In this document: positions 25,131-31,597 of the stretch, in pieces
How the letters are laid out: every line of letters starts with the position of its first letter
How positions within the stretch are numbered: position 1 is the stretch's first letter
Assembly (NCBI GenBank): GCA_040905925.1
Contig: JBBDQO010000012.1
Location: 1-58,488 of the forward strand
Origin: Acidimicrobiia bacterium
GTDB lineage: Bacteria > Actinomycetota > Acidimicrobiia > Spongiisociales > ZC4RG35
Length of the DNA: 58,488 nt
Direction of reading: 5' to 3'
Notes under the pieces: model-generated
The model's database searches: none
Told to the model about the DNA's origin: nothing
What the model saw: the letters and a program-made list of their open reading frames with translations, nothing else
Program-made: the position numbers and the translations under genes

Positions 25131-26747
25131 TCAACTCTCCTCTATGAGCAGGTCGGCGTACTGGTCCCTGACCACTTTCTTGTCGAACTTGCCCGTACCC
25201 GTCTTCGGGATCTGATCGATGAACACGATCCGGTCGGGTATCCACCAGGCGGCCACCTTCTCCTCGAGGAAGGTGCGAATCGCATCCTCATCGGTGTCGG
25301 CCCCCTCCCGTAAGACCACGAAAGCCGCCGGCCGCTCCTGCCATTTCACGTGTTTGAGCCCGACCACGGTTGCCTCGGCCACATCAGGGTTGGCCATGAT
25401 CGCGTTCTCGAGATCGATCGATGAGATCCACTCTCCACCGGACTTGATCACGTCCTTGGCCCGGTCCGTGATCCGGATGTAGCCCTCAGGGGTGATCTTG
25501 GCGACGTCACCGGTCCGCAGCCACCCATCCTCGAACGACTGGGCCGATCTCGGGTCCTTGTAGTACTCGGCGGCGATCCAGGGGCCCCTGATCAGCAACT
25601 CCCCAAAGGCCTCCCCGTCCTGGGGCAACTCATCGCCGATCTCGTCGACGATCTTCACCTGGAGACCTGCGATCGGGATCCCGGCCGTCTCCAGGAAATC
25701 GAGCTGACGCTGCAGGTCCCAACTCTCCATGTCTGGTTTCAACAATGCGGTGGAGGCAACAGGGTTGGTCTCGGTCATTCCCCAGCCCTGGACCACCCTG
25801 ATCCCGCGTTCGGTGAGGAACCACTCGATCATCGCCCTCGGAACCGCCGACCCCCCGCAGAGAAAGGCGCGTATCGACGACACGTCGGCCTCGGGGTGGG
25901 CCTCCAGGTATTGCCTGATGCCAAGCCACACCGTGGGGACGCCGGCGCTGAAGGTCACCTTCTCGTGCTCGAAGAGCCGCACCAGACCCTCCGGGGACAG
26001 GTCAGGGCCCGGATAGGTCAGCTTGGCTCCCTGGGCGACGGCCATAAAGGGGTATCCCCAGGCCGAGGCATGGAACATCGGCACCACGGGCAGCACGTTG
26101 TCGGTGGGGCCCATCGGGTAGTTGGCCAGGTTGGAGATGGTGTGGAGGTAGGTGGAGCGCTGGGTGTAGGCCACCCCCTTTGGACTCCCAGTCGTGCCCG
26201 ACGTGTAACAGAGCATCATCGGCGACCGCTCGTCGAGCTCGGGCCACTGGCCATGCTCCGGCGCGTCCGCGATCAGGTCCTCGTATGCGATGGAACCGGG
26301 GATGCGCGGGTCGGCCTCAGCTCCCATCACCACATAGGTCGTGACCGTCTCGAGTCGGGGAACCACCGGCGCCAGAAGTGGGACCAGGTCGGGATCGACG
26401 AAAAGGACACGGTCTCCGGCATGGTTGACGATGTAGGCCACCTGGTCGGCGAAGAGCCGGATGTTGACGGTGTGACAGATCAGACCCGTGTTTGCGGTCG
26501 CCCAATACAGCTCGTGATGGCGTCGGTTGTTCCAGGCAAAGGTGGCAACCGCGTCACCGGCGGGCAGACCCAGCCCTCCCAGTGCCGAAGCCAAACGCCG
26601 GACCCTGGCGTCCGTCTCCCCATAGCTGGTGCGGGTCAGGGACCGGTCGGCCTCCACCGACAGGATCTGCTGGTCGGGGTAGAGCCGAACCGATCGGTCA
26701 TAGAGCGTCGACAGATTGAGCTGGAAGTCGTCCTGCATATGTGGCAT
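25131..26747 (-). CDS. Long-chain fatty acid--CoA ligase (AMP-dependent synthetase)
   Basis: YTSGTTGSPKGV AMP-binding motif, GWGMTET, GWLRTGDV, KTGTGKFDKK. The start ATG overlaps the upstream TGA by 1 nt (TGATG). Confidence 0.9.
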   Translation of the reverse strand: MPHMQDDFQLNLSTLYDRSVRLYPDQQILSVEADRSLTRTSYGETDARVRRLASALGGLGLPAGDAVATFAWNNRRHHELYWATANTGLICHTVNIRLFADQVAYIVNHAGDRVLFVDPDLVPLLAPVVPRLETVTTYVVMGAEADPRIPGSIAYEDLIADAPEHGQWPELDERSPMMLCYTSGTTGSPKGVAYTQRSTYLHTISNLANYPMGPTDNVLPVVPMFHASAWGYPFMAVAQGAKLTYPGPDLSPEGLVRLFEHEKVTFSAGVPTVWLGIRQYLEAHPEADVSSIRAFLCGGSAVPRAMIEWFLTERGIRVVQGWGMTETNPVASTALLKPDMESWDLQRQLDFLETAGIPIAGLQVKIVDEIGDELPQDGEAFGELLIRGPWIAAEYYKDPRSAQSFEDGWLRTGDVAKITPEGYIRITDRAKDVIKSGGEWISSIDLENAIMANPDVAEATVVGLKHVKWQERPAAFVVLREGADTDEDAIRTFLEEKVAAWWIPDRIVFIDQIPKTGTGKFDKKVVRDQYADLLIEES

Positions 26748-27361
26748 CAGCCTTCACCCAGCAACTTCCTCTTCTGGACCTCGAACTCCTCGGTGGTCAA
26801 CTTCCCTTCGTCATGGAGCCGGGACAGGGTCTCCAACTCGGTCACAGAGCTCGCGCTGGGCGCCGATGGGGCGCCGCCGGACCGCATCTCCGCCATACGA
26901 GTCTCACGCGCCTCGTAGATCAGCTTCTGCACCTTTTCCGGATGAGGGATGTTGGTGTACGCAGACTGCCCATGGGTGCCGGCAGATTCGATCATGAGGT
27001 CGCCAGATCCGAAGATTCGCTCGATCATCGATTGCTTGAAGGTGACGTCGTTGATGACTTCGAGCGGGATCTCGGTCCCCTTCTTGGAGATCAGCCCGGT
27101 CCGATAGATGAGCCGCTCGTTGGTTATCACGTGCTGGGTGGTCCACCAGCGAACGAACTCGGCAACCACGACCACGAACCAGAGCAGGATCAGGGCGGCG
27201 ATGACCCACGTCTTGGCATCGAAACTCAAAGTGGCGACGAGGATGATGAGCGCCGCGACCATGACGGTGAGCAGGCCCTCCTTCAGGATCTGAGACCAGT
27301 GCGGTCGGAACTCGATCTCGATCTCCTCCCCGGCACTCAGCAGCTTTTGCGGATAACCCAT
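26747..27361 (-). CDS. Membrane bPH_2 (YdbS/YdbT-like PH) domain protein with C-terminal SHOCT domain
   Basis: Two TM helices, a PH-like core (ITNERLIYRTGLISKKGTEIPLEVINDVTFKQSMIERIFGSGDLMIE) and a C-terminal LSRLHDEGKLTTEEFEVQKRKLLG (SHOCT). Confidence 0.8.
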   Translation of the reverse strand: MGYPQKLLSAGEEIEIEFRPHWSQILKEGLLTVMVAALIILVATLSFDAKTWVIAALILLWFVVVVAEFVRWWTTQHVITNERLIYRTGLISKKGTEIPLEVINDVTFKQSMIERIFGSGDLMIESAGTHGQSAYTNIPHPEKVQKLIYEARETRMAEMRSGGAPSAPSASSVTELETLSRLHDEGKLTTEEFEVQKRKLLGEG

Positions 27362-27378
27362 CTGTTTCCTTCCATTGT

Positions 27379-28023
27379 TCAGCCGAGCAGCTTTCGCTTC
27401 TCGGTGTCGTACTCACTCTGGGTCAGCTTTCCCTGATCGAAGAGCCGGCTCAGGATCTCCAGTTGCTCCGCCGACGACTTGCCCGACGAGGTGACGGTGA
27501 CCGGAGCGGGGACGAATGCGGGACTTGGAGCGGGGTTGGGCCTCGCCGCCGACATCGAATTGGTTCGGTTTCTCCGGGTCTCATCAATGAGCGACTTCAT
27601 CTTCTCGGGCTCGGGAATGTGGAACAGCCTGCTTTGGCCCCTGGAGCCGGCGAACTCGATGACGAGGTCAGCGACACCGATTGCCCGCTCGATCAGGTTC
27701 TGACGGAAGGTGACGTCGTTGATGACTTCCAGTGGAATCTCGTACTCGATTTTGCGCACCAGACCGGCACGGTCGATGAGGCGTTCGGTCGTGATCACAT
27801 GCTCGCTGGCACGCCATCGAGTGTATCCGCCGACTGGGATCCACAGCCAGAGCAAGGTGATGATCGTGAAGGCCCACCCGTTTACCCCGTCAGGCACCAG
27901 AAGGATCAACAGCAGAAGGTAGGCGACGGTGCCGAGCGCCTCCTTCCAAAGCCCCAACCAGTGCGACCCGACCTCGAAAACGACCGACTCCCCCGGAGAC
28001 AGCAGTTCCTGCGGGTAAGCCAT
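27379..28023 (-). CDS. Membrane bPH_2 domain protein with C-terminal SHOCT domain (paralog of 26747-27361)
   Basis: Same architecture: MAYPQELLSPGE..., ITTERLIDRAGLVRKIEYEIPLEVINDVTFRQNLIERAIGVADLVIE, LSRLFDQGKLTQSEYDTEKRKLLG. Confidence 0.8.
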   Translation of the reverse strand: MAYPQELLSPGESVVFEVGSHWLGLWKEALGTVAYLLLLILLVPDGVNGWAFTIITLLWLWIPVGGYTRWRASEHVITTERLIDRAGLVRKIEYEIPLEVINDVTFRQNLIERAIGVADLVIEFAGSRGQSRLFHIPEPEKMKSLIDETRRNRTNSMSAARPNPAPSPAFVPAPVTVTSSGKSSAEQLEILSRLFDQGKLTQSEYDTEKRKLLG

Positions 28024-28377
28024 TCCGTGGAGGCTACAGATCAGGGGTTGAACGGGGCCCGGTGATCGATGGCATGTCAGCCCGAGAAACGAGAAGGCCC
28101 CGAGGGAGCCTTGGCCGAAGCCTCAACCCTCTCGGGGCTCTCGTTCCGATCGGTGTCGGGCCGGGGACCCAACTCCGCTCGGAAGTCGTCGATGACCGAA
28201 GTCTTCGACGGGCGTTCACTGGAGAGCCTCGATCCGAAGATCGCTGCGATCCGGTGACCGCTCTCCCCGTTTCCAGGGAGGGGCGGATCCGAAAACCCGC
28301 CGGTCGGTAGGCCGCCCGACGATCCCTAGAGATCCCCGTTCGGTCTCCCGACCACCTCAGGGTCTCCCCTGTGGCGT
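28024..28377 (-). promoter_or_regulatory. Candidate structured 5' leader RNA, copy 1 (~350 nt), upstream of the PH/SHOCT-PH/SHOCT-acyl-CoA ligase operon
   Basis: No credible ORF. It shares blocks with 29208-29382. Minus-strand RNA contains UUCG-capped hairpins at 28231-28242, 28194-28203 and 28113-22, plus GGCGG...CCGCC around 28276-28296. Confidence 0.45.
28098..28137 (-). repeat. 40-nt imperfect hairpin repeat, copy 1 (38/40 identical to 29240-29279)
   Basis: Minus strand reads CCCCGAGAGGGUUGAGGCUUCGGCCAAGGCUCCCUCGGGG: a 7-bp outer stem, a 5-bp middle stem with two G.U pairs, and GGC-UUCG-GCC at the tip. Confidence 0.85.
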
Positions 28378-28383
28378 TCGGGA

Positions 28384-28412
28384 AAAGTAGACCACAGCCC
28401 TGCCCACCGCAA
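28384..28412 (-). promoter_or_regulatory. Promoter-like -35/-10 pair (TTGCGG, 17 nt spacer, TACTTT) on the minus strand
   Basis: The hexamers were read directly. Spacing and -10 sequence are identical to the element at 29389-29417. Confidence 0.5.
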
Positions 28413-28429
28413 ACCCAGGGCTGGATTGA

Positions 28430-28458
28430 TTTTCGCGATCTCTACTCGACTTTTCGCG
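28430..28458 (-). promoter_or_regulatory. Two direct CGCGAAAA repeats 21 nt apart, 17 nt upstream of the -35 (candidate regulator binding site)
   Basis: Minus strand reads CGCGAAAAgTCGAGTAGAGAtCGCGAAAA. The same arrangement occurs at 29435-29462. Confidence 0.4.
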
Positions 28459-28463
28459 GGGGT

Positions 28464-29207
28464 TCATATGGCGTTCTTCATCGGGATACCGATGAACAGA
28501 TGAAGCATCGACCCGTCACTCAAATCCCTGGTCCGGAACTCCGCGTCGAAGCCCGCCGTGGATAGCGCCGCCAACCAGTCAGAAGTTGAGAACAGTCCCT
28601 GCCGATGTCGATCATGCACCACCGACACCTGGTCGCCTTCCCTGAGCAGATAGACCATGTCCGTCTCGAATGTCGTGTCACCTGGTTCGGGGTCCCAGAC
28701 CCATTCCAGATAGCGAAGACCCCGGGTGCCCTCGTCGTGACCTCCGTGCTCGGTGCCCGGCTCAAACGTCTCGGTGACGTAGTCGGGAACGAAGAGGGCC
28801 ACCCCCTCAGGGGAGCAGTGCTCGCGGGCAGTCCTCGCCGCTGCGATCACATCTTCGATGTCGCTGAGATAGGAGAGCGCATCGTGGAGGAACACCGCGT
28901 CGAAGGGATCACCGAGACGGACAGTCCGCATGTCTCCATGGATGTGAGCGCACTCCGGGTTCAGAGCCCGGCTCACTGCCAGCATCGGCTCGGAACGATC
29001 GACGAGGGTCATCGAGAAGTGGGCCTTGAGATGGGAGGCGTTGTTTCCACCGCCAGATCCGAGCTCGAGCACCCGCCTAACCTCCGACGCCGCGGACTCG
29101 ACAAAGATCTGCCGATAGACCTCAGCCTCTTCGGCATACTCATCCGGCGGGGAGAGCAGCGGCCACCAGCCGGCAAGGTCACCGTAGAGACGGGGGGTGT
29201 CCTCCAA
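28464..29207 (-). CDS. Class I SAM-dependent methyltransferase (TylM1/DesVI-like fold)
   Basis: VLELGSGGGNNASHL (motif I), then VDRSEPML and FDAVFLHDALSYL. TTG is the only in-frame start at the 5' end. Confidence 0.85.
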   Translation of the reverse strand: MEDTPRLYGDLAGWWPLLSPPDEYAEEAEVYRQIFVESAASEVRRVLELGSGGGNNASHLKAHFSMTLVDRSEPMLAVSRALNPECAHIHGDMRTVRLGDPFDAVFLHDALSYLSDIEDVIAAARTAREHCSPEGVALFVPDYVTETFEPGTEHGGHDEGTRGLRYLEWVWDPEPGDTTFETDMVYLLREGDQVSVVHDRHRQGLFSTSDWLAALSTAGFDAEFRTRDLSDGSMLHLFIGIPMKNAI

Positions 29208-29382
29208 GCCCGCAAAGCTACGCCCCCGGACGCGAGAAACCCCGAGGGAGCTTTGGCCGAAGCCTCAGCCCTCTCGGGGCTCTCGATGCCACCCTGCCAG
29301 GAAAGCGGGCCCCCGGCATGGTGGCGATCCGGAAAAACCGAAGTCTCTCCTTCTCCGACCCGGGGTTCCCCCCGTTTCGGTA
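29208..29382 (-). promoter_or_regulatory. Candidate structured 5' leader RNA, copy 2 (~175 nt), upstream of the methyltransferase
   Basis: Shares the order of blocks with copy 1. GGAGAGAC-UUCG-GUUUUUCC is an 8-bp hairpin (29331-29350). GCCACC...GGUGGC forms an enclosing stem. The terminal hairpin is at 29240-29279. Confidence 0.45.
29240..29279 (-). repeat. 40-nt hairpin repeat, copy 2
   Basis: Minus strand reads CCCCGAGAGGGCUGAGGCUUCGGCCAAAGCUCCCUCGGGG. The two differences from copy 1 turn U.G pairs into C-G and U-A. Confidence 0.85.
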
Positions 29383-29388
29383 GTCGGG

Positions 29389-29417
29389 AAAGTAGGTATT
29401 GCCTTCAGGTGCGTCAA
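29389..29417 (-). promoter_or_regulatory. Promoter-like -35/-10 pair (TTGACG, 17 nt spacer, TACTTT) on the minus strand
   Basis: Read directly. It is followed by CCCGAC, as in copy 1 (CCCGAA). Confidence 0.5.
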
Positions 29418-29434
29418 GCGATAGGGCGGGTTTC

Positions 29435-29462
29435 TTTTCGCGTCCTACAGCTCGATTTCGCG
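29435..29462 (-). promoter_or_regulatory. Direct repeats CGCGAAAT / CGCGAAAA 20 nt apart, 17 nt upstream of the -35
   Basis: Minus strand reads CGCGAAATCGAGcTGTAGGACGCGAAAA. This is the counterpart of 28430-28458. Confidence 0.4.
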
Positions 29463-29514
29463 GTGCCCGGACAGGTCCACGTTCCTGTCACAGGGGGCCC
29501 TTACACTCGCCTCC

Positions 29515-30309
29515 ATGACCGTCGAAGCACCCGATCGACAACTGACGACGCTCTCCCCGAGCCGGGCGGGTGACTTCAAGACGTGCCCTCAGCTGTTCAA
29601 GTTTCGTGCGGTCGATCGCCTCCCCGAGCCGACATCGGTCTATCAGGCCAGGGGGACCACGGCCCATCTCGCCCTGCAGCGCCTCTTCGATCATCCGGCC
29701 GTGGACCGCTCGCCCGATCTCCTCTACAACCTGTTCCGGGAGGCGTGGACCGAGTTGAGGGGAGACGAGGAGTTCGAGAGTCTCTTCGAGGACACAGAAG
29801 CCGAGCGGACCTGGGGTCTGCAATCGATGGAGCTCCTCGCCAACTATTTCGGCATCGAAGACCCCACCAGTTTCGACCCGGTCGACCGTGAGCTCGACAT
29901 GCTCGAGGATCTGGACGGGATCGTGATCCGCGGCATCCTCGACAGGATGGATCGTGACGAGGACGGCCGTCTGGTCATCACCGACTACAAGACGGGGTCC
30001 GCTCCCCCGGAGCGATACGCCCTCCCTGCCTTCTTCGCTCTCAAGATCTACGCCCTGCTCATCAGACGCCGAACCGGGGAGACGCCGAAGGAGATCAGGC
30101 TGCTCTATCTGAACGGGCCGACCGAATACCGCCTCGGCATCGACGACCGCCAACTCGATGCCATGGACGGTCAGCTACGCGCCCTGTGGAATGCGATCGA
30201 GAGGGCAATGACTTCGGGGCGGTTTCCGACCAGACCGGGCAGGTTGTGCGACTGGTGCTCGTTCAGGGGCATCTGCCCGGCCTTCGTCCCAGACGCCCAC
30301 CGCGATTAA
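29515..30309 (+). CDS. PD-(D/E)XK nuclease, RecB/Cas4-like with a 4Fe-4S cysteine set
   Basis: FKTCPQLF (first Cys), GILDRMDRDEDGRLVITDYKTG (D...D-Y-K), C-terminal CDWCSFRGIC (CxxCx5C). A TACACT hexamer 7 nt upstream of the ATG suggests a leaderless mRNA. Confidence 0.85.
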   Translation: MTVEAPDRQLTTLSPSRAGDFKTCPQLFKFRAVDRLPEPTSVYQARGTTAHLALQRLFDHPAVDRSPDLLYNLFREAWTELRGDEEFESLFEDTEAERTWGLQSMELLANYFGIEDPTSFDPVDRELDMLEDLDGIVIRGILDRMDRDEDGRLVITDYKTGSAPPERYALPAFFALKIYALLIRRRTGETPKEIRLLYLNGPTEYRLGIDDRQLDAMDGQLRALWNAIERAMTSGRFPTRPGRLCDWCSFRGICPAFVPDAHRD

Positions 30310-31597
30310 GGGAAGATACCTCGGACCAGTTTGGCGTCTGCCACCTTGCGAATCCCCTTGATGAGGGCGGCGGTCCGCAGGTCCACGTTCTCACTCTGGG
30401 CGATGTTGTGTACGTCGCTGAAAGCCCGGGTCATGATCTCCCGGAGACGGGCCACGACTTCGTTCTCCGTCCAGAAGTACTTCTGCACGTCCTGCACCCA
30501 TTCGAAGTAGGAAACGGTGACACCACCGGCATTGGCGAGGATGTCGGGAACCATGAGCACCTCGCGGGCACGGAGCAGGTCATCCGCCTCGATGGTGGTC
30601 GGGCCGTTGGCGCCCTCGAGGATGATCTTGGCCTGAATGCTGTCGGCGTTGTCGGCGCGGATCACGTTCTGGACCGCCGCGGGCACCAGCACATCGACCG
30701 GCAGGGAGAAGACAACGTGGCCATCGATGTGGTCGGCGTCGGGGTATCCCTCGAGAAAGCGGCTCTCGTCGACCCATTTCGCCAGCGCCTCGATATCGAG
30801 CCCATCGGGGTTGTAGACGCCTCCCGAGATGTCGGACACCGCCACGACTCTGGCGCCCATTTGGTGACCGGCGATCGCGGCGTATCTGCCCACATTGCCA
30901 AACCCATGGATGGCGACCGTGGCGTCCTTGGGGTCGAGGCCCCGAATCGCCGCCGCCTGTGGCAGCAGGAACATGATGCCCCGACCGGTGGCCTCCCTCC
31001 GGGCAATACTCCCACCAGGGCGGGAGGCTTGCCGGTGACGACGGCCGGCACGGAGTGACCGACATGCTGGGAGTAGGTGTCCATCATCCATGCCATCACC
31101 TGCTCGTTGGTCCCGAGATCGGGGGCGGGGATGTCGGTATCCGGGCCGATCACATTGATGATCTCCATCGTGAACCGTCGGGTCACCCTTTGCAGCTCGG
31201 CCCGGGAGACCTGCAACGGGTCGAGACGCACCCCGCCCTTGGCCCCACCGAACGGCAGCCCCACGATCGAGCACTTCCACGTCATCAGCATGGCTAGGGC
31301 GGCGATCTCGCCGAGGTCGACATCCGGCGCGAACCGGATCCCGCCCTTGGTCGGCCCCATAGTGGTCAGATGCTGCACCCGATAGCCGAACAGTGTCTCG
31401 ACTTCGGAGTAGTTGTCGTGGCGGAAGGGAAAGCTGACGACAGTGGCCTTCTGGGGAACCCGGAGCCGGTCTGTCACGTTGTCGTCGAGGCCCATCAGAC
31501 GGGCCACCCGGTCGAATTGGCCGACGGCCTCGTGATACATGGGAGAGTCGAATTCGTGGCCGATCGGCTTGAGCACCGGTGTGACGGCGTTGGCCAT
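30306..31597 (-). pseudogene. gdhA: Glutamate dehydrogenase (Glu/Leu/Phe/Val dehydrogenase family) interrupted by a 1-nt frameshift near 31017
   Basis: The N-terminal part (31597 down to ~31018) carries KGGIRF, GLPFGGAKGG and ends ...VTGKPPAL. The C-terminal part, in another frame, starts GGSIARREATGRG..GFGNVG... Inserting one base in the run at 31016-31017 restores ALGGSIARREATGRG. Confidence 0.75.

Follow-up and report, generated by a model that had tools for sequence, protein, structure and literature searches.

This report concerns two non-coding units, named S and L here, in a window of 58,488 nt from an Acidimicrobiia bacterium (GCA_040905925.1, contig JBBDQO010000012.1); the window is the whole stretch of DNA that was analysed. 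We consider it probable (about 70%) that S and L are two paralogous stand-alone structured RNA genes. Both lie on the minus strand, S ahead of a gene for a class I S-adenosylmethionine (SAM)-dependent methyltransferase and L ahead of an operon that codes for two PH/SHOCT membrane proteins and an acyl-CoA ligase. Our analysis demonstrates the paralogy of the two units, their conserved structure, their distribution at a single locus, their promoter architecture, and that S does not depend on the methyltransferase gene. A first-pass annotation had proposed that the two gaps contain a shared cis-regulatory leader that co-regulates the methyltransferase and the PH/SHOCT-ligase operon. Its recognition of a structured minus-strand RNA of no known class has held up, but the shared leader has not: S is kept where the methyltransferase gene is absent, S and L have promoters of their own, and the downstream genes have their own -10-like boxes.

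Paralogy and structure of S and L

The two units share a terminal hairpin that is marked by a 46-nt repeat (28098-28143 and 29240-29285) with 44 of 46 positions identical (96%), where shuffled sequences are expected to yield none. The earlier description of a near-identical hairpin ahead of both start codons is thus accurate, and the distances from the hairpin end are 74 nt to the PH/SHOCT ATG and 32 nt to the methyltransferase TTG. In S, the hairpin reads GAGAG-CCCCGAG-A-GGGCU-GA-GGC-UUCG-GCC-AA-AGCUC-C-CUCGGGG-U-UUCUC, and it comprises a lower stem (GAGAG-CCCCGAG), an A·C mismatch, a G-U-rich middle stem, an internal loop that is probably a tandem G·A, and a GGC-UUCG-GCC cap. The hairpin is strong. 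The tails that follow in the window are UUUCUCGCG for S and CCUUCUCG for L, and some of the tail bases form pairs with the conserved GAGAG at the 5′ side of the stem. A terminator scan flagged one site, at 28112-28094, in L only. The hairpin is the most conserved segment of both RNAs and contributes invariant columns to both alignments, and the helices upstream of it covary freely.

The sequences located 5′ of the hairpin sort into two types, S and L. A covariance model built from relatives of S scored the S of the window at 180.8 bits on the minus strand versus 23.8 bits on the plus strand. The same model recognized the 3′ part of L (28088-28245, its last 158 nt) with 69.3 bits (E ~1e-14), versus 14.6 bits on the plus strand, and matched P2, P3 and P4 of S to the three 3′-most hairpins of L. 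The match on L and the contrast between strands indicate that the paralogy is real beyond the hairpin and that the RNA strand is the minus strand. Many G-U pairs in both structures are likewise consistent with a minus-strand RNA. The original observation that the two gaps are related, share a block order and point the same way therefore stands on the 44/46 hairpin, the box pairs, the promoters and the model match on L. Two details of that observation require revision. The middle blocks CCGAA(A)CGGGG and GUUUUCGGAUCCGCC (UUUUCGGAUCCGCC), which had been listed among the shared elements, are out of register with the homology found by the model and probably resemble each other by chance, and L carries four UUCG-capped stems rather than three.

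S is composed of four hairpins. P1 is a nested 5′ hairpin with a GNRA or UUCG loop, P2 is a UUCG hairpin, P3 has an invariant apex (GGGGGCCCGCUUUCC), and P4 is the terminal hairpin. The consensus fold derived from 41 sequences (RNAalifold) contains 40 pairs, with 98.2% of cells paired. Compensatory change is present in 17 of these pairs, compared with 7.7 ± 1.7 in column shuffles, and none of 500 shuffles reached 17. When the structure was slid by 1-3 columns as a control, 3-8 pairs exhibited compensatory change.

L is larger, and in relatives usually spans 330-450 nt, with 246-404 nt separating the -10 box from the hairpin. From its 5′ end, L consists of the P1 hairpin, the variable domain described below, and a conserved core (GGGGAUC...GGGAUCGUCG) with hairpins of the UUCG and GAAA kind; the P3-like hairpin GUUGGGUCCCCGGCCCGAC comes next and the terminal hairpin last. 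The sequences GGGUCCCCGGCCCG and GGGGAUC..GGGAUCGUCG are invariant. Compensatory change affects 19 of 65 predicted pairs among 36 sequences, a count that is based on a rough MAFFT alignment. The variable domain consists of zero to about five GNRA-capped hairpins and in most relatives amounts to ~95 nt or more. It is missing from the window (site 28355-28362; compare L001:5545-5640, where labels L001-L167 denote the loci of relatives) and from the closest relative, L096. At the other extreme, L023 and L046 have an expanded domain with up to about five GGGAAACC-type hairpins, and these loci provide natural deletion and expansion variants.

Compensatory changes, G-U pairs, fold z scores against shuffled sequence (-4.7 for L and -4.25 for S) and minus-strand model scores all favour the view, already put forward in the first-pass annotation, that these regions are structured RNA rather than spacer. 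A protein-coding frame conserved across the element had been named as an observation that would speak against this view. Stop-free frames are uninformative at 65% GC, and indel lengths were used in the search for a conserved open reading frame (ORF) across the units, which found none: of 225 runs of gaps in the S alignment, 210 are not a multiple of three in length, which argues against a conserved ORF. S and L thus have the compensatory pairs, the strand specificity and the lack of a conserved ORF that characterize genes for structured non-coding RNAs.

Promoters and distribution of the RNA family

The paired CGCGAAA(A) repeats reported earlier for both gaps are the only two CGCGAAA-N-CGCGAAA pairs in the 58-kb window. 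Both are on the minus strand, and none is expected. The TTGNNG-17 nt-TACTTT promoter-like pair is also found in both gaps, as had been claimed, and is kept in relatives. Every S and every L is preceded by the consensus CGCGAAAA, 13-14 nt, CGCGAAAA, ~17 nt, TTGnnn, 17 nt, TAC(T/C/G)TT, and in the S of the window the proximal box ends 17 nt ahead of the -35 hexamer. Among the S promoters of 46 relatives, the boxes are always present and the hexamers and spacer length are constant, with spacer sequences that vary. The L promoters similarly preserve boxes, hexamers and spacings and not the sequence of the spacer. Constant boxes, hexamers and spacings that accompany variable spacer sequences are the signature of a promoter and not that of an RNA. 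Related loci totalling 1.34 Mb contain 294 box pairs, of which 279 have a hairpin within the next 620 nt on the same strand; the other pairs stand before a diverged hairpin or are truncated where the locus ends. This makes the boxes specific to S and L genes. Judged by their sequence, they could be the site of a regulator or a phased A-tract element resembling an UP element. To our knowledge, they match none of the actinobacterial sites for GlnR, PhoP, MtrA or WhiB7, and no promoter recognized by an extracytoplasmic function (ECF) sigma factor.

A second set of promoter-like sequences suggests that the methyltransferase and PH/SHOCT genes own separate promoters downstream of the hairpins. At 43 of 83 non-redundant loci, a TAnnnT sequence occurs 6-9 nt before the start codon of the gene after L, versus 0.4% for internal ATG/GTG codons. 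Leaderless mRNAs of actinobacteria have a -10 box at this distance from the start codon, and its presence here suggests that the methyltransferase and PH/SHOCT mRNAs are leaderless. In relatives, the methyltransferase gene has a GTG start 6-7 nt after TAGCCT, and in other lineages the -10 box is followed by a short Shine-Dalgarno leader.

To establish the distribution of the family, the hairpin core CCCCGAGAGGGNTGNGGCTTCGG was scanned through 185,579 species-representative (GTDB) genomes, as well as metagenome and viral contigs. The core is present in 89 stretches from the genomes, almost all labelled Acidimicrobiia or Actinomycetota, and in 87 metagenome contigs with 1-2 copies each; the viral contigs gave no matches. 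Metagenome contigs whose ends mark RNA ends were also sought, and none was found, all being longer than 1 kb and genomic. Each genome has 1-2 copies of the hairpin, always at one locus, and this includes contigs of 1.2-2.6 Mb and a 3.25 Mb chromosome. The first-pass annotation had asked for homologues in relatives and for signs of dispersal in unrelated contexts. Homologous units do recur in Acidimicrobiia with conserved and covarying structure, and 1-2 copies at a single locus exclude a dispersed element of the repetitive extragenic palindromic (REP) or miniature inverted-repeat transposable element (MITE) kind. The family is restricted to the class Acidimicrobiia.

Homologues of the methyltransferase and PH/SHOCT genes are found in metagenome-assembled genomes of Acidimicrobiia, on contigs that share gene order and both non-coding units. 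The conserved order is glutamate dehydrogenase (GDH), a divergent PD-(D/E)XK nuclease gene, S, a variable interval, L, zero to two PH/SHOCT copies, and the ligase. S and L are far more conserved than the neighbouring PH proteins, which are 35-70% identical. In many genomes S and L are arranged in tandem with no gene between them, and their hairpins are ~480-520 nt apart. The interval otherwise holds the co-oriented methyltransferase gene in the clade of the window, and in other lineages a gene for an NYN-domain protein, a ceramidase-like membrane protein or a cupredoxin, all convergent, or an F420H2-dependent quinone reductase (Ddn-like) in either orientation. L precedes the first gene by 50-200 nt, even where the PH genes have been lost and the ligase gene or an LppM-like gene follows. 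In several lineages, inversions have separated S from L and from the nuclease gene or changed its orientation towards them, and in every such case L still fronts the ligase operon.

S is intact without a methyltransferase gene at L002/3/4, L008 and L009. It is also intact in L096, where the DNA is 96-97.5% identical to the window and the methyltransferase gene has decayed. When 28462-29197 of the window is compared with L096:3160-3260, the gene appears as a presence/absence polymorphism among genomes that are >96% identical; its remnants in L096 are the start (TTGGAGGAC) and two internal fragments, and L167 (metagenome contig Ga0209109_10002355), with 97.3% identity to the window, keeps the gene.

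Other variations of the locus were encountered. One clade (L021:1751-4665, L066:2443-3391; including the 3.25 Mb chromosome OY970227.1) has three hairpin units in a row according to the S model, and may, on this evidence, carry a third member of the family. In L040 and L044, S is followed by a co-oriented nuclease gene. S and L are on opposite strands in L017, L037, L050, L053 and L067.

Possible functions and rival explanations

As stand-alone genes, S and L would each consist of CGCGAAA boxes and a sigma-A type promoter, a chain of covarying hairpins capped by UUCG or GNRA loops, and the shared terminal hairpin. The two genes would be switched on together through their common boxes, which may serve as the site of one regulator or as the UP-like element of a strong promoter. 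Transcription would end at or just past the terminal hairpin, which could provide both the 3′ end or terminator and a common recognition module. This hairpin, the S apex GGGGGCCCGCUUUCC, and the L sequences GGGUCCCCGGCCCG and GGGGAUC..GGGAUCGUCG are candidate contact sites of a common partner, most likely a protein. S and L would then act in trans (or bind protein) instead of acting as 5′ leaders, and leaderless mRNAs of the methyltransferase gene and of the PH/SHOCT-ligase operon would each start from a separate -10 box. The neighbouring genes point to no mechanism for S and L.

Several considerations weigh against stand-alone genes. In essentially every genome, L precedes the [PH/SHOCT]-ligase operon in the same orientation, and functional coupling or regulation by read-through would equally give this constant position. 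A simple test finds no leaderless-type -10 box at roughly half of the loci. The hairpin is followed by a weak U-tract (UUUCUC; in the L of the window, CCUUCUC). Moreover, the expression, start sites and 3′ ends of S and L are predictions from DNA sequence, and both the partner and the target of these RNAs are putative.

The constant position of L is the chief attraction of the explanation that L (and S, wherever it precedes a gene) acts in cis as a leader, be it an attenuator, a large riboswitch or a leader bound by protein, whose hairpin is a conditional terminator for the PH/SHOCT-ligase operon. L lies upstream of this operon in the same orientation at all loci with visible context, the hairpin is terminator-like, and L is large and highly structured. 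Yet the locus is a rarely rearranged block of the core genome, and synteny alone is therefore weak evidence for a cis role. Putative promoter boxes (TAnnnT) also lie between the element and the gene, including a conserved -10 box 6-9 nt before the start codon. A riboswitch would be expected to have a conserved sensor and a less conserved platform, but here the terminal hairpin is the most conserved part, and it is shared with S. A constant class of co-oriented downstream gene, the ligase operon, is seen for L and not for S, which often faces a convergent gene. The part of L that could resemble an aptamer is modular, being present or absent as a whole domain, and a search by eye revealed no evident alternative antiterminator pairing in L. 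We therefore regard a cis-acting leader as unlikely, although a cis effect of L alone on the ligase operon, for example by read-through or by interference at its promoter, is possible given that L invariably precedes this operon in the same orientation. A third explanation, that the units are REP/MITE-like or terminator repeats without their own function, draws on the near identity of the hairpin repeat and on a separate REP-like element that has entered the interval from L to the PH gene of some relatives. Against it stand the 1-2 copies per genome at one syntenic locus, even on Mb-scale contigs and the 3.25 Mb chromosome, the promoter and covarying upstream structure that belong to each copy, and the retention of sequence across a class whose neighbouring proteins are only 35-70% identical. 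Its probability is close to nil.

S and L could also be regulatory RNAs that bind RNA polymerase as functional analogues of 6S RNA or Ms1. There are two paralogous and probably abundant RNAs with strong-looking dedicated promoters, and their sizes (~155 nt and 300-450 nt) lie on either side of those of 6S RNA (184-201 nt) and Ms1 (~300 nt) (PMC4191392). Such a role is attractive because 6S RNA is generally unidentified in Actinobacteria, and the source for this statement does not mention Acidimicrobiia (PMC9130861). However, 6S RNA and Ms1 fold into a long hairpin or rod with a central bubble (PMC4191392), and S and L fold as local hairpins in series, which lack both a closing stem and such a bubble. 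There is no match to 6S models of Rfam even at E values up to 10, and the synteny of Ms1, whose neighbours code for an HAD-IB hydrolase/phosphoserine phosphatase and an oxidoreductase (PMC9130861), is replaced by GDH, PD-(D/E)XK nuclease, PH/SHOCT and acyl-CoA ligase genes. On the grounds of fold and synteny we reject 6S and Ms1 as family assignments, and a role as their functional analogues seems very unlikely to us. A more ambitious proposal, for which we see little chance though somewhat more than for a 6S/Ms1 analogue, is that S and L form an undescribed ribonucleoprotein system of Acidimicrobiia with a dedicated regulator for the boxes and one hairpin-binding partner. L would then be a new large RNA of 300-450 nt with a modular GNRA-hairpin domain, S would be its minimal paralogue, and the hairpin would be known to the partner by its tandem G-A internal loop and UUCG cap. 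The nature of that partner could make S and L a counterpart of 6S/Ms1 or RNAs that sequester a global regulator.

The REP-like element mentioned above is ~65 nt long (TTCTCCCCCC..GAGCG..TTGGGGGGAGTACCGCCGAAGGCGGGGAGGGGGG) and is unrelated to S and L. Some relatives (L001:5900-6000, L005:5890-6000, L096:3630-3790, L042, L045 and L047) carry one to three insertions of it, placed after the L hairpin and ahead of the PH promoter; it is also found elsewhere in L045 and is not in the window.

Comparison with known RNA systems returns to the preferred reading of S and L as stand-alone RNA genes. The Rfam 15 collection, whose 4227 models include 6S, raiA and riboswitch classes, gave no match in the window at gathering scores, which agrees with the first impression that no known riboswitch class is present. 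At E values up to 10, the region 27900-29700 produced chance-level matches only (E 0.7-7, far below gathering), and those to EBV sisRNA, F6 and mir-1296 were dismissed as chance. A search of a library of papers found no description of S or L.

Actinobacterial trans-acting small RNAs such as 6C RNA are short, consist of a chain of hairpins and belong to high-GC bacteria without Hfq. S and L resemble 6C RNA as hairpin chains with conserved C-rich loops that are possible seeds, for example CCCGCUUUCC of the S apex, and differ from it in having no homology (no Rfam match) and in the much larger, modular L. The raiA motif RNA (PMC10861870) is an orphan structured RNA of bacteria that came to light by comparative genomics, and OLE, GOLLD and ROOL are examples of large RNAs. 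Like these, S and L have a covarying multi-helix structure with many GNRA and UUCG tetraloops, are restricted to a lineage, possess their own promoter and terminal hairpin, and have a function that cannot be deduced from their neighbours. Unlike them, S and L lack an Rfam 15 match, form a short and long paralogue pair at one fixed locus, and combine a dedicated CGCGAAA-box promoter with a shared invariant 3′ hairpin. With 6S RNA and Ms1 they have in common a comparable size, stand-alone genes and sigma-A type promoters, and paralogous pairs also exist for 6S RNA (6S-1 and 6S-2 of B. subtilis), of which Ms1 is the actinobacterial counterpart; the rod-like fold with its central bubble and the Ms1 synteny set those RNAs apart (PMC4191392, PMC9130861). 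L resembles a riboswitch or attenuator in being a long structured non-coding region with a terminator-like end before a co-oriented operon, and S and L recall tandem riboswitches as two related elements in series. S and L depart from such systems in that each element has a promoter, the genes behind them carry -10 boxes of their own, no constant gene follows S, and conservation is highest, not lowest, in the “expression platform”.

S and L are of a known kind, the lineage-specific structured non-coding RNAs of bacteria, and what is new is an RNA family pair with a short and a long form, a large member and a promoter signature of its own. Acidimicrobiia abound in soils, in sediments and in both fresh and marine waters, and their RNAs have hardly been studied. 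A pair distributed throughout this class would be a new entry among orphan bacterial non-coding RNAs. It offers several handles for further work: the CGCGAAA boxes could lead to a regulator, the hairpin could lead to a partner, and domain-deletion variants of L, including that of the window, are available. The locus also illustrates a trap for annotation. A long structured gap before a gene of a high-GC actinobacterium need not be a leader, because such genes can be leaderless, with a -10 box that adjoins the start codon.

The locus and its other genes

The rank of these gaps as the two largest non-coding ones of the window, given in the first-pass annotation, is tentative: gene calls based on GC content at third codon positions (GC3), which are crude, leave further gaps, most of which are covered by plausible ORFs. 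The features of the locus are collected in Table 1.

Table 1. Positions of S, L and adjoining features in the window; promoters and transcription starts are predictions.
Feature	Position	Strand	Remarks
S RNA, ~155 nt	29231-29388	-	P1, P2, P3, P4; 41-sequence alignment and covariance model
S terminal hairpin	29234-29284	-	terminator-like 3′ module, nearly invariant in the class
S core promoter	TTGACG 29417-29412; TACTTT 29394-29389	-	17-nt spacer; predicted start near 29383-29381
S upstream element, two CGCGAAA(A) boxes	29436-29462 (distal 29456-29462, proximal 29435-29442)	-	boxes ~21 nt apart
L RNA, 295 nt in window	28089-28383	-	36-sequence alignment (MAFFT, rough)
L terminal hairpin	28092-28142	-	tail CCUUCUCG
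L core promoter	TTGCGG 28412-28407; TACTTT 28389-28384	-	17-nt spacer; predicted start near 28378
L upstream element, two CGCGAAAA boxes	28431-28458 (28451-28458, 28430-28437)	-	kept in L promoters of relatives
Gap 1 (holds L)	28024-28463	-	between methyltransferase and PH/SHOCT genes
Gap 2 (holds S)	29208-29514	-	divergent intergenic region
-10-like box TAGCTT	29215-29220	-	7 nt before methyltransferase TTG 29207; putative promoter of leaderless mRNA
-10-like box TAGCCT	28031-28036	-	7 nt before PH/SHOCT ATG 28023; putative promoter of leaderless operon mRNA
Class I SAM-dependent methyltransferase gene	28464-29207	-	TTG start 29207; variable cargo between S and L, outside the RNA units
PH/SHOCT gene 1, membrane protein	27379-28023	-	ATG at 28023; heads operon 25131-28023
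PH/SHOCT gene 2, membrane protein	26747-27361	-	operon member
Acyl-CoA ligase gene	25131-26747	-	operon member
PD-(D/E)XK nuclease gene	29515-30309	+	divergent from S; usual left-hand neighbour of S

Two observations concern genes on the far side of S. The GDH gene at 30306-31597 on the minus strand (1292 nt) is split into two overlapping ORFs, 30306-31280 and 30662-31597. Its relatives code for a single 430-aa protein, and the copy in the window has a one-base frameshift, which makes it a pseudogene or reflects an assembly error. The nuclease gene is preceded on the plus strand (29486-29517) by TGTCA-CAG-8 nt-TACACT, then 7 nt and the ATG at 29515, and the corresponding promoter region of distant relatives reads TGTCG-CGG-8 nt-TATGAT. 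We take this sequence to fit the RecA-independent DNA-damage promoter of actinobacteria (RecA-NDp of the PafBC regulon, TGTCRgtg-N8-TAnnnT), presumably with a leaderless mRNA, in which case S would stand back to back with a DNA-damage promoter.

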